Shown piece after piece: positions 3,603 to 55,380 of a stretch of DNA of 64,000 nt. A model generated the notes under the pieces. That model had not been told where the DNA came from and did no database searches. It saw only the letters and a list, made by a program, of their open reading frames with translations. Made by a program: the position numbers and the translations under genes. Positions within the stretch are counted from its first letter, which is position 1; each line of letters starts with the position of its first letter. The stretch comes from Fidelibacterota bacterium UBA2242 (GTDB lineage Bacteria > Fidelibacterota > UBA2242): NCBI GenBank assembly GCA_002347855.1, contig DDYE01000017.1:271685-335684 (forward strand). Direction: 5' to 3'.

Positions 3603-3836
3603 ATGAAAGAGTTCGTCGAATTCATCGTTAAGAGATTAGTTGATCATCCTGATGAAGTAAAGGTATCCCAAATTGACAGTGAAAAGACTGTAATTTTGGA
3701 ACTGCAGGTAAAAGAAGGCGATTTAGGTAAGGTCATTGGCAAGAAGGGACGCACTGCCAAAGCCATTCGAACGCTCTTAACAGCCGCAGCCGCCAAGCAA
3801 GGACAGAAACGCGCCATTTTAGAGATTATTGAATAA
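3603..3836 (+). CDS. KH-domain RNA-binding protein (YlqC/UPF0109-like)
   Basis: The [18 protein letters not shown] motif is a KH GXXG loop. Position between rpsP and rimM is conserved. Confidence 0.7.
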
Positions 3837-3838
3837 CT

Positions 3839-4351
3839 TTGAGGATGACGAAGGTAGCACTTACCCTAATTGGGTCTATCCTCAAGGCGCGTGGTTTAAA
3901 AGGGGAGGTGCTACTGAAAGTTCATTCACAAAGTGTTGAAATTAACCAGAATCTCAAGGTGGTTTGGTTGGGTGAGGATGACGACCACCTTTATCCGTGG
4001 GAAGTAGAATACTTACGGATAAGAGAAAAATCTGCTTTTTTGAAATTGCGAGCTATTAATTCCCGGAGTGAAGCGGAGTATCTAAAAAATCTTTCTGTTT
4101 ACGTACCAGTCGATGATTTGAAAGAACCGGAATATTCAACGCTAATCGGTTTTCGTGTAAAAGCTCATGATTGGTCAGAAATTATCGGCGAAATTACAGC
4201 CTTTGATGATACAGGCAAGCAGGCTCAATTTACCGTACAAGTTGGACAAAAAAACCTGCTTTACCCGGCTGTAACCGAGCTTATTGGTGCAATTGACTGG
4301 GATAATCGGACGGTATGCTTGAATATGATTGAGGATTTGATAAATCTATGA
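3839..4351 (+). CDS. rimM: 16S rRNA processing protein RimM
   Basis: ARGLKGEVLLKVHS matches the RimM N-terminal motif, followed by a PRC-barrel-like C-terminus. Synteny is rpsP-rimM-trmD. Confidence 0.85.
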   Translation: MRMTKVALTLIGSILKARGLKGEVLLKVHSQSVEINQNLKVVWLGEDDDHLYPWEVEYLRIREKSAFLKLRAINSRSEAEYLKNLSVYVPVDDLKEPEYSTLIGFRVKAHDWSEIIGEITAFDDTGKQAQFTVQVGQKNLLYPAVTELIGAIDWDNRTVCLNMIEDLINL

Positions 4352-14568: not shown

Positions 14569-14660
14569 GGGAATGAATGCAACCCCGGTGGGTGCCGCGG
14601 TCTTCAAAATCGTCGTCCCGCCAATAGGCGGGAGCTGGGTTCGACTCCCAGGCGTTCCCG
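14569..14660 (+). tRNA. selC: Predicted tRNA-Sec (selC), anticodon UCA
   Basis: Hand-folded. Acceptor stem GGGAATG/CGTTCCC contains one G-U pair. The D-arm has a 6-bp stem with a 4-nt loop. Anticodon stem gcggt/atcgt encloses loop cTTCAaa. The variable arm is cccgcc-aata-ggcggg. T-arm is ctggg-ttcgact-cccag, with discriminator G and no encoded CCA. Length is 92 nt. Confidence 0.6.
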
Positions 14661-14792
14661 CAAAAATCTTGCGCTCCTTTAGCTGATTAGCGATTTGGCG
14701 GGGGAAATAGTTCAGGTTGATATCCAATCATTAAATTGGTTATTGGAAATTTGAGATAATATTGCTAAAATTTCCACGTTATTTGATTAAAT

Positions 14793-14878
14793 GAGGTCCA
14801 GGGGTGCTATCCCGGCAAATTGGGACGGCTGAGAAATTACCCTTTGAACCTGATCTGGATAATACCAGCGAAGGGAGG
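14793..14878 (+). promoter_or_regulatory. TPP (thiamine pyrophosphate, THI-box) riboswitch
   Basis: Matches the RF00059 core: GGGGUGC, a P3 hairpin, GCUGAGAAAUUACCC, then UUGAACCUGAUCUGGAUAAUACCAGCGAAGGGA. This is near-identical to the E. coli thiM aptamer core. It ends 4 nt before the receptor ATG. Confidence 0.85.
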
Positions 14879-14882
14879 TCGT

Positions 14883-17399
14883 ATGAAATGCCTTTTTTCT
14901 TTTCTTTTAATCTTTTCAATTCTTTTTTTCAGCAGCAGTGTCAACCTTTGGGGTGCTGTATCCTCTAAGCCAATTGTTATTACCGGTGAAGTAGTTTCAG
15001 CGCATAGTGCTGCTCCAATCGCCAATGTAAATATCTCGGTCGAAGGCACCCGATGGGGTTGTGCCAGTAATAAAGCTGGCATTTTTGTAATCAAGGTAGA
15101 TTCTCTTCCCGTGACCCTGTCATTCAGTCATATTGCTTTCGAGAGAAAAAATGTCAGGGTCACTCGACCTCAGGTCGGCATAATCCAGCTCGTTCCAGCG
15201 GTATTGATGGGCGAAGAAATCTTAGTCTCCGCGACTCAAGCAGTGCCCGGCAAAACACCAGTTGCCTTTACCGATTTGAACCGGATGCAAATTGAACAAC
15301 TTTATTACCATCAGGATGTACCGCTGGTTTTATCCGACCTGCCGGGTGTCTATGCTTATTCTGATGCGGGCAATGGGGTTGGTTATAGCTATCTCAAAAT
15401 CAGAGGCTTTCAGCAGAGTCAGTTAGGAGTGCTGCTTAATGGCATTCCTTTAAATGACCCTGAAGAGCACGCCGTCTATTGGGTTGACCATGGTGACATC
15501 CTTGCCTCGAGCAGCAGTATTCAGGTCCAGCGTGGGGTTGGTAACTCTCTCTATGGTACTTCTGTGTTTGGCGGTACTGTTAATGTTGTGACCAATACCA
15601 GCAGCCTACCACGGGGTACAACTTTGAATCTCGGTTATGGCAATTACATGGAAAAGGGATTGGATTTGCCATCGCAAAAAATTGCCTTCAGCTATAATGG
15701 TTCCCTACCTAAAAATCTGTCACTGTATCTACGCCTATCCCATCTGACTAGTGCTGGTTATCGTCAGAGTAGCGGTACAGACCAAAATTCATTGCATTTG
15801 AGTCTCGAACAATCGCTAAAAAACAGATTGACTCGCCTGGAAGTTCTGTTAGGAGTAGAAAATACTGGTTTTGCTTGGGAAGGTATTGCTCCAGTATACG
15901 GTTATAATCTTAAAAACCGTCAGCAGCGACGCTATAATTTTTATGCTGACCCTGAATATAATGGTGGTTTAACGAATGCTAATAAGGATGTTTTCCGGCA
16001 GGGACTCTTTTCGCTGCAACATAGTCGGATTATAAATCATGTTTTGTTGAATCTAACTCTCTATGCGGTTCAGGGTAATGGTTATTATGAACAATTCAAG
16101 GGTAAGCGTGATGTTGAGGAATACAATTTAGTCAGCCTATTCCCAGATGTAGTACATAAAGTTGATTTAATCCGACAAAAGTGGCTGCAAAACGGCTACT
16201 GGGGTACGCTTTATCAAATTACCCTTCCGCTTAAAAGTTGCCAATTGACCCTGGGCGGTGATATGCGCATTTATGAAGCAGCTCACTTTGGACGAGTTAA
16301 AAAAGTCCTCAAAGAGTACTTGCCCAATGATAGTACGATTTCGCAATCAACCTTTCCGCCTGCTAACCATAAGTATTATCAAACTGACCGAGAAAAAAAA
16401 TCAATTTCCTTTTATGTTCACAGCTATTTTGATTTAACGCCACGCTTAGGTCTGATGTTTGATGGGCGTTATTTGGGGCATCGCTATTCCTATATCCAGC
16501 GCCGCCTTGGTGTTTATACTCAGGGATACCGCTTTAAACTCAAGTACGATTTCTGGGATCCGCATATCGGCGTCAATTATCGCCTGACTGATTATTGTTC
16601 CATTTTTAGCAATATCTCCACTGCTCACCGTGAACCAACAGACGATGATATTTATAAACAAGATAGTCCGGAGGATGTGCCCAAATTGACTCATTTAGAG
16701 CGAGAGTATGCTGAGCCGCTGGTCAAACCCGAATATTTAATTGACTACGAAGCGGGACTTAAGTTTGATTTACCTGCTACTAAACTGCAAATTAATCTCT
16801 ATCGCATGGATTTTCGTGATGAATTAATCCCGGTGGAATATCGTTACTATGATGCCGACCAGGTATTTCATGCCAATATTGACCGCACAGTTCATCAGGG
16901 AGTTGAGTTGAGCTTTACTCAGCGCTGGCGATGGTTATTGTGGGATGCTAATTTGTCTTATGCTGACAACCATTTTGTGAATTTTCAGGCGGATTCCATT
17001 GGCTGGAGTGGTTGGGGACCAATTGCGGATTATAGTGGAAAAGTCATTCCCGCCTATCCCACCTGGCAAGCCAAGAGTCGCCTTAGTTTGAAATTGGCTG
17101 ATAATGAACTCTGGTTGCAGACAATCTATACTGGCAAGCAGTATATTGACTTTGCGAATACTTCCGCTGCAGCCATCAAGCCCGTTACGTTAGTGAATGT
17201 CGGGTTGAATTATCACCTACCCTTGAAGAAGTATTTCAAGGCAACACTTGCTTTCAGGATTAACAATCTATTCGACAAACTTTACGAGACTTTTGGCTAT
17301 AACTACTATGAAGACTGGGATGATCATTTACAACGCATAGACCTCTATTGGCCAGCTGCTACTCGTAACTATTATCTATCTCTGGTCGTGAATTTTTAA
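14883..17399 (+). CDS. TonB-dependent outer-membrane receptor (CarboxypepD_reg N-domain, plug, beta-barrel); putative thiamine/TPP-precursor transporter
   Basis: Signal peptide MKCLFSFLLIFSILFF. The CarboxypepD_reg region is VITGEVVSAHSAAPIANVNISVEGT. The plug region is TDLNRMQIEQ. The C-terminal residue is aromatic (F). It lies directly downstream of the TPP riboswitch. Confidence 0.8.
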   Translation: MKCLFSFLLIFSILFFSSSVNLWGAVSSKPIVITGEVVSAHSAAPIANVNISVEGTRWGCASNKAGIFVIKVDSLPVTLSFSHIAFERKNVRVTRPQVGIIQLVPAVLMGEEILVSATQAVPGKTPVAFTDLNRMQIEQLYYHQDVPLVLSDLPGVYAYSDAGNGVGYSYLKIRGFQQSQLGVLLNGIPLNDPEEHAVYWVDHGDILASSSSIQVQRGVGNSLYGTSVFGGTVNVVTNTSSLPRGTTLNLGYGNYMEKGLDLPSQKIAFSYNGSLPKNLSLYLRLSHLTSAGYRQSSGTDQNSLHLSLEQSLKNRLTRLEVLLGVENTGFAWEGIAPVYGYNLKNRQQRRYNFYADPEYNGGLTNANKDVFRQGLFSLQHSRIINHVLLNLTLYAVQGNGYYEQFKGKRDVEEYNLVSLFPDVVHKVDLIRQKWLQNGYWGTLYQITLPLKSCQLTLGGDMRIYEAAHFGRVKKVLKEYLPNDSTISQSTFPPANHKYYQTDREKKSISFYVHSYFDLTPRLGLMFDGRYLGHRYSYIQRRLGVYTQGYRFKLKYDFWDPHIGVNYRLTDYCSIFSNISTAHREPTDDDIYKQDSPEDVPKLTHLEREYAEPLVKPEYLIDYEAGLKFDLPATKLQINLYRMDFRDELIPVEYRYYDADQVFHANIDRTVHQGVELSFTQRWRWLLWDANLSYADNHFVNFQADSIGWSGWGPIADYSGKVIPAYPTWQAKSRLSLKLADNELWLQTIYTGKQYIDFANTSAAAIKPVTLVNVGLNYHLPLKKYFKATLAFRINNLFDKLYETFGYNYYEDWDDHLQRIDLYWPAATRNYYLSLVVNF

Positions 17400-17400
17400 T

Positions 17401-17423
17401 GTTCCAGCCATAAAGGCTGGAAC
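17401..17423 (+). terminator. Terminator-like hairpin after the TonB receptor gene, lacking a clear U-tract
   Basis: gttccagcc-ataaa-ggctggaac gives a 9-bp perfect stem. Confidence 0.3.
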
Positions 17424-17469
17424 ATTAAAGCGAGTACGAAAAGGTATACTTTTCGTTAGGGGAAATTGT

Positions 17470-17498
17470 TTGTCAAATTGCTGCAATATGCGTAAAAT
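17470..17498 (+). promoter_or_regulatory. Candidate promoter (TTGTCA-17-TAAAAT) upstream of polA
   Basis: Hexamers are spaced 17 nt apart and lie 16 nt upstream of the polA ATG. The -10 hexamer TAAAAT is the same as in the 9916 candidate. Confidence 0.3.
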
Positions 17499-17513
17499 TT
17501 TCACGCTTATTAT

Positions 17514-20198
17514 ATGGTTCAAAAATCTACATTATACTTAATTGATGGTTCGGCAATTGCTTACCGTTCCTATTTTGGGACGATTCGCAATCGTCTTACG
17601 ACTTCGCGTGGTGAACCAACGGGCGCTGTCTATGCTTTCGTGAACTCACTCCTTAAGATACTAAACGAATCACGACCGAATTATATTGGTATTGCCTTTG
17701 ATGCTCCTGAAAAGACCTTTCGCCATCAGGTTTATGAGGATTACAAGGCGACCCGCGAAGCGATGCCAGAGGACCTCATTAAGCAATTGCCGTATATGTT
17801 CGAGTTTATCAAAGCCCTGAATATTCCAACGATTATTATGCCCGGTTTCGAAGCTGACGATATCATTGGAACGATGGCTTATCGGGCACGTCAACATAAC
17901 CTCCTGGTCTATATTGTCACTGGCGACAAGGATTTTATGCAGTTATTAACGGATGATATTCTTATCCTTAAACCAGCAATTGCCGGAAAAGAGGTAGAGA
18001 TAATTGACGCCGAGGGTGTACTTACTAAGTGGGGTGTTAAGCCGCACCAGATTCCTGACTATCTGGGATTAATTGGTGATTCCTCTGACAACATACCAGG
18101 AGTGAAAGGTATCGGACCAGCCAAGGCACAGCCACTTTTACAGGAATTTGGCAACCTGGAAGGTGTGCTCAACAATCTTGACCGTATTGGCAATCCACGC
18201 ATTCGCGATTTGATTCGTGATGGTGCTCATCTGGCACGTTTATCGAAAGAACTAGCGACTATTAAAACCGATGTGCCCATTAATATTGATTTTGAAATGC
18301 TGAAAGTCCAGAATCCCGATGAAGAGGCTTTGCAAAACCTTTATAAACGTCTCGAATTCCATTCCTTGTTAAAACAAACTGAATCAATCGCACCGTCGCC
18401 ACGACCAATAAAAAATTACCGCACCGTTCAAAGCTTGTCTGAGATTAGACAACTCATCGCAGAAATCAAACATGGTGATGTCTTTGCTCTTGACTTGGAA
18501 ACGACCTCCATCAGTCCTATGATAGCAGAAATCGTGGGAGTGGCGCTCAGTTGGAAGCCTCATCAAGGTATCTATTTGCCTCTGCGGATGCCCGGCGGGT
18601 TATTTGGCAATGAAGAACATCTCCAGTTATTGAAAGAGTTAAAACCAATTCTCGAAGATGAAAAATTGACGAAATGCGGCCAAAATCTGAAATACGATTT
18701 ACTCATTCTCAAGCGCTACGGGTATCAGGTTAGAGGGAAAATTTTTGATACTATGATTGCGGCTTATTTAATTCAGCCCGATGCCCATAGCTACAAACTC
18801 GATAAACTTGCCCAGCAATACCTGAACTATCAGATGCAACCCATTGAAGAGTTAATTGGTAAGGGCAAAGACCAGTTGACTATGGATCAGGTGTCTGTGG
18901 AAAAAGTCACCTTTTACGCGGCAGAGGATGCTGATGTAGCTCTACAACTCCAGCCAATCTTGACTCAGAAAATGCACTCAGATCAAACCTGGGATGTTTT
19001 TCAAAATATTGAGATGCCGCTGGTGCCAGTCTTGATGACTATGGAACAGAATGGGGTTTTCCTGAATATCGAACTTTTAAAGCAAATGTCCTGCGGTCTC
19101 GATGAGCAAATTGAGCAACTCAGTCAGCAAATCTACGACCTGGCAGGTTGTCAGTTTAATATCAATTCACCTAAACAACTTGGAGAGATTCTCTTTGATA
19201 AATTAAAATTGCCTAAAATCAAAGGCTACTCCACTGATGTGACGGTTCTGGAAAAGATAAAACATCGGCATCCACTACCGGAAGCCATCCTTGAATACCG
19301 CGGCTTGGTCAAGCTGCAAAATACTTACCTTGAGACTCTGCCGCAGTTAGTCAATCCCAAGACGGGGCGTGTGCATAGTTCTTTTAATCAGACCGGTACC
19401 GCTACTGGACGATTGAGCAGTAGCGACCCCAATTTTCAAAATATTCCTATCCGTACAGAAATTGGTCGTGAAATTCGTAAGGCTTTTGTCCCGCAACGAA
19501 CTGATTGGCTCATTTTGTCGGCTGATTATTCGCAAATTGAACTAAGAATTATGGCGCATTTATCTAAGGATCCGGAGTTGCTCCGGGCGTTTAGTGAAAA
19601 TGTTGATATCCATACCCGCACTGCTGCACGTGTTTTCGGTGTCGCTGAAGAAGATGTACTGCCGGAAATGCGCCGGGTAGCCAAAGTGGTAAATTTTGGG
19701 ATAATGTACGGCGCAGGACCATTCAGGATGTCTGAAGAATTAAACATTCCGCGGGCAGAAGCTACTAAACTAATTAAACAATACTTTAATACTTACCCAG
19801 GGATAAATGCTTATATCATGAAAACTCTGGAAGAAGCGCGAGAGAAAGGCTACGTCAAAACCTTAGCGGGACGTCTGCGCTATGTCCCGGATATTAATAG
19901 CGAGAATCGTAATATCAGGGAAGCCGCGGAGAGAATTGCGATTAATATGCCCATTCAGGGTACTGCCGCCGATATGATAAAACTGGCAATGATCAAAATT
20001 CAAGCGCAAATGGAAGAGCATAAACTCCGGGCAATGATGATTTTGCAAATTCACGACGAGTTGCTTTTTGAAGTGCCATCTGATGAACTGGATATTTTAA
20101 AGACCATCGTCGTCAGAGAAATGGAATGGGCACTGCCTCTGGATGTGCCCATTCATGTTGAAGTTGGTGTAGGAAAATCTTGGTACGAGGCGCATTAG
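17514..20198 (+). CDS. polA: DNA polymerase I
   Basis: Has a 5'-3' exonuclease N-domain, a 3'-5' exo domain, and polymerase motifs (RRVAKVVNFGIMYG, ILQIHDELLFEV). Length is 894 aa. Confidence 0.95.
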   Translation: MVQKSTLYLIDGSAIAYRSYFGTIRNRLTTSRGEPTGAVYAFVNSLLKILNESRPNYIGIAFDAPEKTFRHQVYEDYKATREAMPEDLIKQLPYMFEFIKALNIPTIIMPGFEADDIIGTMAYRARQHNLLVYIVTGDKDFMQLLTDDILILKPAIAGKEVEIIDAEGVLTKWGVKPHQIPDYLGLIGDSSDNIPGVKGIGPAKAQPLLQEFGNLEGVLNNLDRIGNPRIRDLIRDGAHLARLSKELATIKTDVPINIDFEMLKVQNPDEEALQNLYKRLEFHSLLKQTESIAPSPRPIKNYRTVQSLSEIRQLIAEIKHGDVFALDLETTSISPMIAEIVGVALSWKPHQGIYLPLRMPGGLFGNEEHLQLLKELKPILEDEKLTKCGQNLKYDLLILKRYGYQVRGKIFDTMIAAYLIQPDAHSYKLDKLAQQYLNYQMQPIEELIGKGKDQLTMDQVSVEKVTFYAAEDADVALQLQPILTQKMHSDQTWDVFQNIEMPLVPVLMTMEQNGVFLNIELLKQMSCGLDEQIEQLSQQIYDLAGCQFNINSPKQLGEILFDKLKLPKIKGYSTDVTVLEKIKHRHPLPEAILEYRGLVKLQNTYLETLPQLVNPKTGRVHSSFNQTGTATGRLSSSDPNFQNIPIRTEIGREIRKAFVPQRTDWLILSADYSQIELRIMAHLSKDPELLRAFSENVDIHTRTAARVFGVAEEDVLPEMRRVAKVVNFGIMYGAGPFRMSEELNIPRAEATKLIKQYFNTYPGINAYIMKTLEEAREKGYVKTLAGRLRYVPDINSENRNIREAAERIAINMPIQGTAADMIKLAMIKIQAQMEEHKLRAMMILQIHDELLFEVPSDELDILKTIVVREMEWALPLDVPIHVEVGVGKSWYEAH

Positions 20199-51393: not shown

Positions 51394-53979
51394 TTGGCAA
51401 AAAGTGTCATTTTAGCTGGAGGAATTATTGTGCTTAGTTGGCTGATTATGATTTTATTGATTACCTTTTTAGCGGCACTCTTTTTCACCCGAGTTGCCCG
51501 CTCGATTGCGCTCAAATATCACATCGGTGATATGCCCAATGCCCGCAAAGTGCATAAAACCTTTATGCCCTATCTAGGAGGAGCAGCCATACTCCTGGCG
51601 ATAATTCTCGGGACGATTTTGTCGGTATATATCTTACCTGACGTTGCTGGTCCTGTGCCAAGGCGTTACTATTTCTTAGGAATAACTGCGGTAGCTATTG
51701 CCTTGGTTGGGCTTTATGATGATTTAAAAAAATTACGCTTCACGACAAAATTTTACTGCCAGTTTATCGCTGCCATGGTAGTGATCGCGGGTGGTTTGCG
51801 CTTTACCTCTATTTATATTCCGTATATCGGTGATATTTACCTGGGGTGGAGCGGGTACATATTTACCCTGCTTTGGATAATATTTATTACCAATGCCATG
51901 AATTTATTGGATGGCTTGGACGGCTTGGCAGCTGGTGTCTCATCGATTATTTTTCTGACTTTTGCTATCATTGCGTTGCATAGTGGGCGAACACTGGTAG
52001 CGCTTGTCAATTTATTACTGATTGCTGCTAACTTAGGATTTTTGAAATATAACTACCATCCGGCTACTATTTTTATGGGAGACACGGGTTCCCTCTTCCT
52101 GGGATTTGCCACGGCGATTATTTCGCTGGAAATAGGACGCATTGGAGAAAGTGACCATCTGAATGTCATTCTTCCTTTGACTGTGATGGCGATGCCAGTA
52201 TTAGATACAACTATTGCTTTTTTCAGACGAGCCAGTAAACGCATGCATCCTTTTAAAGCCGATAAAGAGCATATTCATCATCGTCTAATGTCGATAGGAT
52301 TTTCGCATAAAAATGCTGTCAAGGTCATCTATTTTATTAGTGCCTGTACTGGTCTGATGGGACTTTCTTTCATCTTTTTGGACCGAAAGGGAATCATCAC
52401 TGCACTTTTCTGCGGATTGGTCTTCACGATGATACTAATACGTCGGCTGGGATATTTTGAAATTGAGAAGAATTTAATTGTCGTGCCCAATAGCAATGGT
52501 AATGGGAACAGTTCCACTAATGGATTATTAAATGGCAATGGTCACAAAGAGCAAAAATTTATTCCTTTCGATACTTCGCAATTTGTTCAGGCGGCGCTCT
52601 TTTTCTTGAGCGATGCAATCTTCTGTTGTTTAACCTTTCTACTGGTCTATTTCTATGAAATCAAGGTAATGCTGCCCTCTAACAGTGCTCTTGCGCCTTA
52701 TGATTTAAGCTTATGGATGGTTTGGTCGGTTTTGTACTGGAGCATTTTGCTTGGTTTAAATAATCTCTATCATATTGAATGGGACACCTCGCGCATTGAT
52801 GAAATCTTCTCAGTTTTTAAAATAGTCTTTTTCGGTACGGTAGTCCTCTTTTTCCTGAGTTTTGAAATAAAAATTCCCTTTCTCGTCTCTCGCCGCGTAT
52901 TTCTGCCTTATGGTATTCTATTAACGATTGGTCTCGGCCTCGGACGTATCCTGCTGATTTCCTTTTTAAAATCCAGAGAGATTTTAGAGTTCAAGAAAAG
53001 ACCGACTATTATTATTGGACTCTCCAATTCTGCTATGAATGTCGTTAAAAAAATCAACAATATGCCCGTTCTCAAATTTCAATTGGTTGGTTTTATTGAT
53101 GATAAAAACAATGGCAATGTCGGGCAGGTAATTCAAAATCTTCCCGTATTGGGCAATTACGCCGATATTCCGCAAGTGATTAAAAAATACAAAATCAAGG
53201 AAGTCATAATTGCTATTGATGACAACGACATCAATAAAGTCATGGATTTGATTGCCTGGTTCTGTCAATACAATGTTTCGATTAAATTAGTGCCAGATTT
53301 TTACAACCTGCTGACTGGTTTTAAAACTGCTCATATTTATGGTATTTCGCTGATAAAATTTTTTGACTCCAATATGAAAACCTGGGAATGGGTGCTCAAG
53401 CGTCTAATCGACATCATCATTTCCCTCATTGTGTTAATCGTATTTGCACCGTTCTGGCTGATTATCAGCATCATTATCAAACTGGATTCGCCTGGACCCG
53501 TCTTTTATCGTCAGAAACGGGTAGGCAAGAATCGTCAGGAATATGAATTAATCAAATTTCGCTCCATGGTTCAAAATGCTGAGGAATTGACCGGACCAAA
53601 ATGGGCGGAGAAAGATGATCCGCGGGTGACCCGTTTTGGGCGCTTTTTGCGTAAATATGGCTTGGATGAAATTCCGCAATTTTTCAATGTTCTGATTGGT
53701 GATATGAGCATTGTTGGTCCTCGTCCAGAGCGTCCCTTTTTCGTCAATGAGCTGGAGCATTCGATTCAATTTTATTCACGCCGCTTGATTGTCAAGCCTG
53801 GTATTACGGGTTGGGCTCAGATTAAATATAAGTACGATGAGACCATCGAAGATGTGCGTGAGAAATTACGCTATGATTTATATTATATTGAGAATATGTC
53901 GGTGCTGCTCGATTTAAAAATAATTGTTCGAACTCTATTGGTCGGTCTGCGCAAAAAGCATCATATTGCTTACGTCTAA
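51394..53979 (+). CDS. Fused phosphoglycosyltransferase: N-terminal WecA/MraY-family (polytopic) joined to a full WbaP-type (TM region, CoA-binding-like domain, monotopic catalytic domain)
   Basis: The N-half carries YDDLKK (DDxxD), [21 protein letters not shown] and HIHHR, all MraY/WecA motifs. The C-half carries TIIIGLSN...LVGFIDD and [17 protein letters not shown]...[35 protein letters not shown]. Total length is 861 aa. Confidence 0.75.
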
Positions 53980-54025: not shown

Positions 54026-54076
54026 TTTTTCGGAAGGCTATTTATTATCCTATTTTGATTCCGAAAAAATTTTTAT
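54026..54076 (+). terminator. Terminator-like long hairpin (10-bp stem tttttcggaa/ttccgaaaaa, 23-nt loop, T-rich tail) at the end of the polysaccharide locus
   Basis: Inverted repeat seen directly. The T-tract TTTTTATTTTA follows. Confidence 0.35.
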
Positions 54077-54102
54077 TTTATGCCGTCAATCTTGGAGAAT
54101 TC

Positions 54103-55380
54103 ATGTTAGACTTGAAAGCTATACGTTCTGAACCTGAAAAATTCCTGCGGTTATTAGAAGCCAAAGGCGCTGCTGAGAACTTGAACCGGCTCCTCGACCT
54201 GGATTACCAGCGGCGTCAGTTAGTGACAAAAACCGATGAGTTAAAAAGTCTGCGCAATCGCGTAAGCGACGAGATAGCCCGGTTAAAAAGAGCGGGAGCA
54301 GCAGCTGAAGATAAAATTAAAGAAATGAAATCCGTCAGCCTGCAGATAAAAGAGCAGGATGAGCAAATCCGCTCACTTGAAGAGCAAATTCACCAGATAT
54401 TAATCACACTCCCCAATATACCCCACGCTTCTGTTAAAATAGGACGAAGCGCGGCTGACAACGAGGTGGTAAAAATCTGGGGAGAGGTGCCGACTTACGA
54501 TTTTCCACTTAAAGATCATCTCGATTTAGCGGAGAATCTTGGTATTATTGATTTCAAGCGGGCGGCGAAAATTTCGGGAACTGGTTTCCCGCTTTATGTC
54601 GGAGACGGGGCAGTTTTGGAGCGGGCGCTAGTAAATTTCATGCTGGATTTTCATCGTAAAAAACACGGCTACCGTGAAGTTTTTCCACCATTTCTGGTCA
54701 ATCGTGATTCTGCCTTCAGTACCGGTCAATTGCCTAAACTCGAAGAAGATATGTACTTGACCAGTGAAGATGACTTATTCTTAATTCCAACTGCCGAGGT
54801 TCCGGTCACCAATATTCATCGCGACGAAATCATACCTGAAAACAAGTTGCCAATCAAATATGTCGCCTATTCCGGCTGTTTCCGTCGGGAAGCTGGTTCT
54901 TATGGCAAAGAGACGCGCGGTCTTTCTCGGGTGCATCAATTTAATAAAGTCGAATTGGTCTGGTTCACGATCCCGGAAACATCCTATGACGTTCATGAGA
55001 AGTTACTGCAAGATGCTGAGGAAATTTTACAAGCATTAAATTTACACTATCGAGTTGTCTCACTGTGCTCGGGTGATTTGAGTTTTGCGGCAGCAAAATG
55101 CTATGATATTGAAGTCTGGGCGCCTGGGACAGGTAAATATTTTGAGGTTTCAAGCGTTAGTAACTTTGAGGATTTTCAGGCTCGACGGGCAAATATTCGT
55201 TACCGCCGCTCGGGCGATAATAGAGTTGGTTATGTGCATACCCTGAATGGTTCCGGAGTAGCAACACCCCGACTGATGATTGCCCTTTTGGAGACCTATC
55301 AGACTGACGAGGGAACAATCGTAGTTCCGGAAGCTCTGCAACCTTATACTGGTTTTAGTTTGATTAAAACTACGGTTTGA
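54103..55380 (+). CDS. serS: Seryl-tRNA synthetase
   Basis: MLDLKAIRSEPE is the canonical start, followed by a coiled-coil arm. Class II motifs include FRREAGS and GSGVATPRL. Confidence 0.9.
   Translation: MLDLKAIRSEPEKFLRLLEAKGAAENLNRLLDLDYQRRQLVTKTDELKSLRNRVSDEIARLKRAGAAAEDKIKEMKSVSLQIKEQDEQIRSLEEQIHQILITLPNIPHASVKIGRSAADNEVVKIWGEVPTYDFPLKDHLDLAENLGIIDFKRAAKISGTGFPLYVGDGAVLERALVNFMLDFHRKKHGYREVFPPFLVNRDSAFSTGQLPKLEEDMYLTSEDDLFLIPTAEVPVTNIHRDEIIPENKLPIKYVAYSGCFRREAGSYGKETRGLSRVHQFNKVELVWFTIPETSYDVHEKLLQDAEEILQALNLHYRVVSLCSGDLSFAAAKCYDIEVWAPGTGKYFEVSSVSNFEDFQARRANIRYRRSGDNRVGYVHTLNGSGVATPRLMIALLETYQTDEGTIVVPEALQPYTGFSLIKTTV

Follow-up and report, generated by a model that had tools for sequence, protein, structure and literature searches.

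The 64-kb window analyzed here (64,000 nucleotides of contig DDYE01000017.1 from Fidelibacterota bacterium UBA2242, numbered from its first letter) contains a thiamine pyrophosphate (TPP) riboswitch aptamer immediately upstream of a gene encoding a TonB-dependent transporter (TBDT), both on the forward strand. The aptamer matches the Rfam family RF00059 at positions 14790–14893 over the full model (positions 1–105), with a score of 66.5 bits (E = 7.2e-11) against a gathering score of 54.3; the model takes in 5 flanking nt on the 5′ side and 12 on the 3′ side. When the entire window was scanned with Rfam, there were two matches in all, the TPP riboswitch and a tRNA-Sec, and no second TPP aptamer was found within the 64 kb. 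A preliminary description of this stretch had claimed a consensus THI-box in the leader and named a cmsearch with RF00059 as the check; the quoted motifs are present and the score lies above the gathering threshold, so that the claim is borne out. The locus is a Fidelibacterota example of an already documented arrangement, an OMthi-type receptor under a TPP riboswitch, in a clade-specific form that has no separate expression platform.

GGGGUGC, the P3 hairpin, GCUGAGAAAUUACCC, and UUGAACCUGAUCUGGAUAAUACCAGCGAAGGGA are all read in the leader, and the sole element deleted from the window aptamer is the P3a hairpin, which is optional in the RF00059 model. According to the Rfam alignment, the 5′ strand of P1 (GGUCC, 14795–14799) is partnered with the 3′ strand at 14877–14881 (GGUCG), and a single nucleotide separates the latter from the start codon. 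Between the two strands lie the pyrimidine-sensor arm P2/P3 with the J3-2 motif CUGAGA (14800–14843), the pyrophosphate-sensor arm P4/P5, CCUGAUCUGGAUAAUACCAGCGAAGG (14849–14874), and the junction GA (14875–14876). The core motifs of the sensor arms, GGGGUGC...CUGAGA and GAACCUGAU...GG.UAAU.CC.GCG.AGGGA, are present and correspond to invariant columns across 13 aptamers of the receptor family. The family-specific covariance model R1, built from these 13 aptamers, scores the window aptamer at 92.9 bits. In their alignment, GGGGUG, CUGAGA, and P4 are invariant, compensatory changes occur in the P2/P3 pairs, and the P5 pairs covary (CG/UA/AU). Double changes that keep pairing occur at 5 of the 13 consensus pairs (in P2, P3, and P5), and P1 has no common register among relatives.

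The receptor and its riboswitch across relatives

The TBDT gene (14883–17399) starts with the ATG at 14883–14885; the frame beginning at 14884 contains 46 stop codons. The preliminary description gave the product length (838 aa) and the 4-nt gap before the ATG correctly, GCGAAGGGAGG ending at 14878 and being separated from the ATG by UCGU, but had placed the ATG at 14884 instead of 14883. The longest open reading frame (ORF) begins at TTG 14820, within the aptamer, and this start is an artefact. The identical 838-aa product has been predicted on contigs from NCBI, JGI, Logan, and ENA.

A putative signal peptide, read from the sequence MKCLFSFLLIFSILFFSSSVNLWG, covers approximately residues 1–24 (14883–14954). 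It is followed by the domains CarbopepD_reg_2 (residues 33–98, 14979–15176; 45 bits), Plug (residues 124–232, 15252–15578; 43.6 bits, cut-off 23.9), and TonB_dep_Rec_b-barrel (residues 346–796, 15918–17270; 115.5 bits, cut-off 27), all three of which exceed their Pfam cut-offs. The AlphaFold (AF2) model of the receptor, with 35 homologues in the input, has a canonical plug-in-barrel TBDT fold (pLDDT 86.2, pTM 0.84). A structure search with this model gave 358 PDB matches at E ≤ 0.001; the best 50 of them are all TBDTs, with TM-scores on the target of at most 0.83, and the top match is PqqU (9c4o; E 2.8e-39, TM 0.80 on target). The solved TBDTs PqqU, YncD, FyuA, FecA, and BtuB share the fold at 13–18% identity. 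No close relative was found in the PDB: the best sequence match (E 1e-6) covers the plug region alone, and the fold matches are at most 18% identical. The NCBIfam models are all far under their cut-offs (best 95 vs. 223 bits). Thus, the Pfam domains and the predicted fold confirm the earlier assignment of the downstream gene to TonB-dependent receptors with CarboxypepD_reg, plug, and barrel domains, for which a profile search of the ORF had been proposed.

The linkage between receptor and aptamer was surveyed at 106 relative loci (numbered with the prefix L), obtained from 20 species-representative genomes, from metagenomes by means of a close-clade profile (80), and by exact protein look-up (6). 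At the curated Rfam threshold, an aptamer is detected upstream of the receptor gene at 16 of the 20 species-representative loci; R1 recovers, at 46–47 bits, the aptamers of L016–L019 (Flavobacteriales), which are missed at the Rfam gathering threshold, and it also detects an aptamer at nearly all of the metagenomic loci. A same-strand upstream aptamer is present in full at 88 of the 106 loci and is cut by the contig end at one further locus, while the remaining 17 are uninformative, having either less than 260 nt of upstream DNA (10 loci) or an upstream gene for a sodium:solute symporter (SSF) that runs off the contig (7 loci). Hence, no counter-example was found among the 106 loci with R1 and Rfam, i.e., every locus with enough upstream DNA carries the aptamer. 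The linkage holds down to 25% protein identity and spans Bacteroidota, Fidelibacterota-like, and high-GC lineages.

Several of these leaders have peculiarities of their own. Two tandem TPP aptamers precede the receptor gene at L107 (3334–3424 and 3644–3734; Zhuqueibacterota), and also at the metagenomic loci L082, L065, and L068. In three Bacteroidota-type leaders (L010 at 5869, L080 at 2033, and L086 at 2913), an in-frame ATG arises inside the riboswitch where UGG follows the core AGGGA, and the frame is open to the true signal-peptide start approximately 57–63 nt downstream; gene callers may misplace the start at such loci, and start codons misplaced in this way would bias annotation-based surveys of the distance to the start. 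Near-identical leaders and receptor N-termini are shared by L005, L007–L010, L012, L015, and L020, which come from metagenome-assembled genomes labelled as differing Bacteroidota (Prolixibacteraceae, Odoribacter, Chitinophaga pinensis, and others), suggesting mis-binning, contamination, or recent transfer.

Operon partners of the relatives bear on the cargo. At L081 (Prevotella), the gene order is aptamer, TBDT, PnuT (PF04973), and thiamine pyrophosphokinase (TPK; PF04263/PF21275), and partners of this type are found at eight further loci, among them L014, L067, L070, L086, L087, L088, and L098. The window receptor aligns with the L081 receptor over residues 111–838, plug through C-terminus, at 28% identity (E 3e-80), and the plug motifs SDAGNGxGY and NGIPxND are common to both. 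An SSF symporter gene adjoins the receptor gene at 25 loci, including L107, often together with TPK. The order aptamer-SSF-TBDT, into which the seven loci with an SSF gene cut by the contig end also fit, is intact at L030, L034, L037, L042, L044, L046, L047, L059, and L066, and the order TBDT-SSF occurs at L028, L031–L033, L040, L045, L048, L051, and L107. In high-GC lineages, the SSF symporter (PF00474) is a recurrent operon partner that stands where PnuT does in Bacteroidota, and it is a likely inner-membrane transporter of the thiamine family.

With 88 full aptamers and one truncated among the 106 loci, and with PnuT/TPK operons in relatives, the proposal that the aptamer marks the substrate class of the receptor holds, and comparison of the loci supports a link between this receptor and thiamine uptake beyond a single locus. 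The cargo is probably thiamine, the best available argument being that relatives pair the receptor with a kinase acting on thiamine.

The translation start and the aptamer core

The Shine-Dalgarno (SD) sequence of the receptor gene, GGAGG (14874–14878), lies 4 nt before the AUG and is composed entirely of aptamer bases: P4 supplies its final base (G14874), the junction supplies GA (14875–14876), and the 3′ strand of P1 supplies its first two bases (14877–14878). The genome uses Shine-Dalgarno sequences. Anti-SD duplexes of −6 kcal/mol or stronger are formed at 18 of 48 ORF starts in the window, compared with 10% of random positions, and AGGAGG-type sites are found at rpsP, ffh, and groEL of the same genome. 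The SD of the receptor gene forms the strongest anti-SD duplex of the 48 starts (−12.5 kcal/mol).

This geometry is conserved among the closest relatives. Each of the 12 close-clade leaders (receptors of at least 43% identity) has its AUG 3–8 nt past the conserved CGNAGGGA. A core-derived GGAGG precedes the AUG by 4–9 nt in 10 of the 12, namely those parsed by the folding script, and in the other two, L026 and L027, a core-derived GGAGG was read directly from the sequence. The P1 3′ strand takes in bases of the start codon itself in L002, L026, L027, and L110. Relatives at 34% identity or less all have either a spacer of 15–160 nt (mostly 42–160 nt) or an intervening gene. In the window, the terminator scan found no terminator-like site between the aptamer and the AUG, where 1 nt leaves no room for one, and an intrinsic terminator at this position was thus rejected. 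As AUG and SD lie in or against the aptamer in 12 of 12 leaders, the close clade has no separate expression platform, the ribosome-binding site (RBS) being embedded in or against the aptamer. The platform-less leader is a natural example of an SD recruited from the conserved core of an aptamer.

The closest characterized counterpart is the OMthi system of Bacteroidota. The OMthi-pnuT-tnr3 operon of gut Bacteroidetes has been described and genetically tested in Bacteroides thetaiotaomicron, which confirms the earlier statement that riboswitch-gated thiamine TBDTs are known in Bacteroidota as OMthi; deletion of OMthi (BT2390) in a biosynthesis-deficient strain raised the thiamine requirement approximately 10-fold (PMC5613172). 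Clustering with pnuT and tnr3 occurs in most, not all, Bacteroidetes, and B. thetaiotaomicron also has a split arrangement (PMC5613172). In B. thetaiotaomicron, fewer than 5 nt separate the transport riboswitches from the start codon, and their repression acts on translation and not on the mRNA level; in particular, the OMthi riboswitch, at such a distance, leaves the amount of mRNA unchanged and represses a translational NanoLuc fusion at thiamine concentrations from 100 nM (10.1101/867226).

Like OMthi/BtTPP2 (BT2390), the window TPP aptamer abuts the start codon of a TBDT gene, whose translation TPP would repress, and the receptor is homologous to that of a Prevotella OMthi-pnuT-tnr3 operon, as described above. 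On the other hand, the host belongs to Fidelibacterota/Marinimicrobia rather than Bacteroidota, the receptor is longer (838 vs. approximately 741–755 aa), with an additional CarbopepD_reg domain at its N-terminus, the gene appears to be monocistronic beside polA, with neither pnuT nor tnr3 nearby, and the lineage uses a canonical GGAGG SD inside the aptamer core.

With Escherichia coli thiM and thiC, the window leader shares the aptamer class and, as predicted, an SD that is inaccessible when TPP is bound. The thiM riboswitch uses a separate expression platform, in which an anti-SD strand swaps partners. The window leader differs in having no platform, SD and AUG lying within or against the aptamer. 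A recent review groups SAM-II/V, SAM-III, SAM-SAH, and some preQ1-I/II riboswitches as acting by direct occlusion; TPP riboswitches are absent from this list and serve as the paradigm of strand exchange (PMC10907184). By analogy, a leader in which bound TPP blocks access of the 30S subunit would fall into the direct-occlusion group, although the riboswitches listed there are mostly H-type pseudoknots with other ligands, whereas the window fold is the TPP three-way junction. Direct occlusion is thus a less-described action for a TPP aptamer, the principle itself not being new.

On the protein side, the receptor shares the 22-strand barrel and plug fold with PqqU/YncD, which transports pyrroloquinoline quinone, and with the riboswitch-controlled cobalamin receptor BtuB; the general theme is that of an outer-membrane vitamin importer under the control of a cofactor riboswitch. 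The receptor differs from them in sequence (13–18% identity) and ligand, and these structures contain no N-terminal CarbopepD_reg domain.

Proposed control of translation and its alternatives

We interpret the locus as an ordinary RF00059-class TPP riboswitch that has no expression platform, is fused to the translation start of an OMthi-type TBDT gene, and acts by direct occlusion upon TPP binding; we assign this reading a probability of roughly 0.8. At high TPP, the ligand would bridge the P2/P3 and P4/P5 arms and close the junction and P1, and the folded aptamer would cover the 30S binding site, blocking translation of the receptor. Such occupation of the 30S site is suggested by the SD being built from P4, the junction, and P1, with the AUG 1 nt past P1. 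At low TPP, the weak P1 and the junction would be open, GAGGU would be free for the 16S anti-SD, and the receptor would be made and would bring thiamine, or a compound closely related to it, through the outer membrane with energy from TonB. The RBS sequestration proposed in the preliminary description is the best reading of this geometry and has a precedent in B. thetaiotaomicron; the regulatory step itself, along with TPP binding, the OFF direction of the translational switch, and the identity of the cargo, is what we infer.

Several observations weigh against this interpretation. P1 is weak in the Rfam register, with three of five standard pairs in the window (the U·U and G·G oppositions being mismatches) and one to five in clade members. 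Nor is it clearly distinctive: in the fixed Rfam register, from which the actual registers vary, the clade averages 2.67 P1 pairs and the platform-bearing relatives 2.65, with P = 0.045 for the duplex energy. In ViennaRNA folding, the SD is paired in the free and aptamer-enforced ensembles alike (probability of being unpaired 0.01 vs. 0.04). Comparison of the leader folded with and without the aptamer, suggested earlier as a way to reveal an alternative structure at the RBS, accordingly gave no ON/OFF contrast at the SD and AUG, because nearest-neighbor models miss the ligand-stabilized junction. The homology search started from the L081 receptor reached Prevotella proteins alone (at least 82% identity), and BT2390 was not among them. 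Further, no genes of thiamine biosynthesis, salvage, or inner-membrane transport were found in the 64-kb window; this search comprised Pfam and NCBIfam on approximately 55 of the window's 58 ORFs with a length of 110 aa or more and tblastn with PnuT, TPK, and SSF from related loci. Finally, ligand binding and regulation at this locus are predictions from sequence.

Four other explanations were considered, of which the one with the greatest weight concerns the cargo and leaves control as described. The receptor may import a precursor or congener rather than thiamine, e.g., hydroxymethylpyrimidine, the thiazole moiety, thiamine monophosphate or TPP, or a degradation product. Such compounds are common in aquatic thiamine cycling, and the riboswitch senses the end product TPP alone. 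PnuT and TPK, whose adjacency argues for intact thiamine in Bacteroidota, are not adjacent in the window lineage: homologues of PnuT, TPK, and SSF were found neither in the window (tblastn, Pfam) nor at the Fidelibacterota loci L105, L106, and L108–L110, and a precursor or congener is therefore possible there. Outside the Fidelibacterota-like clade, moreover, the receptor reaches only 25–34% identity with its relatives, and it has the extra N-terminal CarbopepD_reg domain. Nevertheless, its end-to-end homology and conserved plug motifs are shared with receptors in TPK-containing operons, and no other substrate is indicated by the sequence, so that we regard this possibility, which alters the cargo and not the mechanism, as unlikely. 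It is hardly credible that the juxtaposition arose by chance or has decayed and that the receptor is an ordinary iron or siderophore transporter. Homologues do have the JGI label "iron complex outermembrane receptor protein," and the best partial NCBIfam matches are to models of siderophore, haem, and B12 receptors; these, however, are the matches that fall far below the cut-off, the solved receptors are no closer than 18% identity, and the full-length aptamer exceeds the threshold and is kept upstream of every informative relative.

The other two alternatives concern the output of the switch and draw on the same hairpin. In the unconstrained minimum free energy (MFE) fold, positions 14870–14878 pair with 14891–14899 and enclose the AUG, and the resulting hairpin, GAAGGGAGG/CCUUUUUUC, is followed by a U-rich sequence. 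The riboswitch might thus be real with mRNA abundance as its main output, through Rho-dependent termination, faster decay, or an unconventional terminator over the first codons. Indeed, E. coli translational TPP switches also lower transcript levels, and the OMthi operon of B. uniformis responds at the mRNA level (10.1101/867226). However, the single nucleotide between P1 and the AUG holds no called terminator-like site, and a hairpin that forms without the aptamer would make TPP activate the importer, which is the wrong logic; secondary effects on mRNA would be a consequence of translational occlusion and not an alternative to it. We consider this explanation quite improbable. Still less probable is a three-state switch in which the pyrimidine tract CCUUUUUUC (14891–14899, codons 4–6) acts as an anti-SD that competes with the aptamer for GGAGG, even though CU-rich tracts are also seen near the beginning of the coding sequence in several relatives. 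These codons specify the Phe/Leu/Ser core of the signal peptide, and at none of 12 loci does the pairing energy beat 1000 synonymous-codon resamples per locus (P = 0.14–1.0), the pairing being weaker than the resample mean at 9 of the 12; the fold of the whole leader is likewise non-significant (z = −1.46). On this resampling, which also counts against the hairpin of the mRNA-level explanation at all 12 loci, the pairing of GAAGGGAGG with codons 4–6 was rejected as a by-product of signal-peptide codons.

Direct occlusion may extend to the whole clade. We consider it slightly more probable than the contrary that the TPP riboswitch of Fidelibacterota and of the lineages nearest to them has been reduced to a minimal device of this kind, in which CGNAGGGA and the following GG double as the SD, P1 extends into the start codon, and no platform is present.

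Genomic context and significance

A promoter-like site, TTGGAA-17 nt-(TG)TAAAAT (14743–14771, forward strand), was found upstream of the aptamer by a scan with a consensus that may not be that of the phylum (9 of 12 matches, extended TG); judging by its position, transcription may start near 14778, approximately 15 nt before P1. It aligns with TTGGGA-17-TAATTT sites at L105 and L106. Just 5′ of P1, CGTTATTTGA (14777–14786) is invariant in the window, L105, and L106, while its flanks vary; it could be an alternative −10/−7-like promoter element or the transcript start.

At the other end of the gene, a perfect 13-bp hairpin, UUAAUGUUCCAGCC-AUAAA-GGCUGGAACAUUAA, overlaps the stop codon (17397–17427) and is followed by a second hairpin of 8 bp (17436–17456). 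The region 17395–17515 folds with −39.9 kcal/mol (z = −6.0), and 0 of 200 shuffles were as stable. Neither hairpin has a U-tract, and neither was called by the terminator scan. The two probably mark the 3′ end of a monocistronic transcript or insulate it, possibly as a U-tract-less terminator or an mRNA-stabilizing 3′ structure. A further promoter-like site, TTGTCA-17-TAAAAT, is located at 17470–17498, before polA. Given the stop-codon hairpin and this site, the receptor gene looks monocistronic.

The tRNA-Sec gene (anticodon TCA) occupies 14569–14661 of the forward strand and precedes the aptamer by 130 nt; Rfam matches it at 14569–14659 (58.7 bits vs. 47), and ARAGORN calls it as well. The order tRNA-Sec, aptamer, TBDT is kept at L105 (tRNA-Sec at 3759–3851), and the tRNA 3′ end is visible at L106. 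Between the tRNA-Sec and the promoter-like region, the window has an insertion of approximately 70 nt (14663–14735) relative to L105 and L106, whose spacers can otherwise be aligned with it. In the JGI annotation of L022, a spurious 47-aa ORF (2685–2872) is called over the tRNA-Sec. The genes selA, selB, and selD were not found in the window, and serS is located at 54055–55380. Elsewhere in the window, an 861-aa ORF (51394–53979, forward strand) joins the domains Glycos_transf_4 (WecA-like), CoA_binding_3, and Bac_transf (WbaP-like), and with them two types of initiating phosphoglycosyl-transferase, inside a large polysaccharide-biosynthesis cluster at approximately 31.6–54 kb.

The more extended order miaB-lapA-lapB-SPOR-tRNA-Sec-aptamer-TBDT-polA-ABC is repeated exactly at L105. 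TBDT-polA adjacency (polA at 17514–20198 in the window) recurs in two complete Fidelibacterota chromosomes; the loci that show it are L105, L108, L110, and, with an insertion, L109. It is conserved across Fidelibacterota, and a functional link between the two genes is not apparent. After identical copies, the next receptor relatives are at 63–64% identity. Named relatives at 48–52% are from Marinimicrobia, Fidelibacterota, Zhuqueibacterota, and Calditrichaeota, with one Lentisphaeria label at 45%, and the named PolA relatives (52–68%) are almost all from Marinimicrobia, Neomarinimicrobiota, or Fidelibacterota. The PolA relatives and the TBDT-polA synteny therefore identify the host as a divergent member of Fidelibacterota, not of Bacteroidota.

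Regarding the physiology of this host, the preliminary description had deduced thiamine auxotrophy or salvage. A capacity for uptake is indicated by the riboswitch-gated importer; auxotrophy is not implied, because B. thetaiotaomicron has a riboswitch-gated receptor of the same type and yet grows without thiamine (PMC5613172). A literature search for thiamine in Fidelibacterota/Marinimicrobia found nothing specific, the mentions of Marinimicrobia being incidental.

The pairing of riboswitch and TBDT is a property of the whole receptor family across the FCB group and high-GC lineages, and not a speciality of Bacteroidota. As the aptamer is found upstream throughout the family, it is a reliable annotation marker, by which a receptor labelled "iron complex receptor" in databases can be assigned to a class of cargo, namely thiamine or something closely related. 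Inside the cell envelope, the family shows three recurrent inner-membrane solutions, i.e., PnuT with TPK, an SSF symporter, and none nearby. If the clade-wide reduction to a direct-occlusion device is true, platform-less TPP switches across an SD-using phylum would constitute a distinct mechanistic variant, and the leader would offer a compact model, of approximately 95 nt, of a three-way-junction aptamer competing with the ribosome. The host phylum, Marinimicrobia/Fidelibacterota, is mostly uncultured and is an abundant member of communities in the dark ocean and the subsurface, in which the exchange of vitamin B1 matters ecologically.

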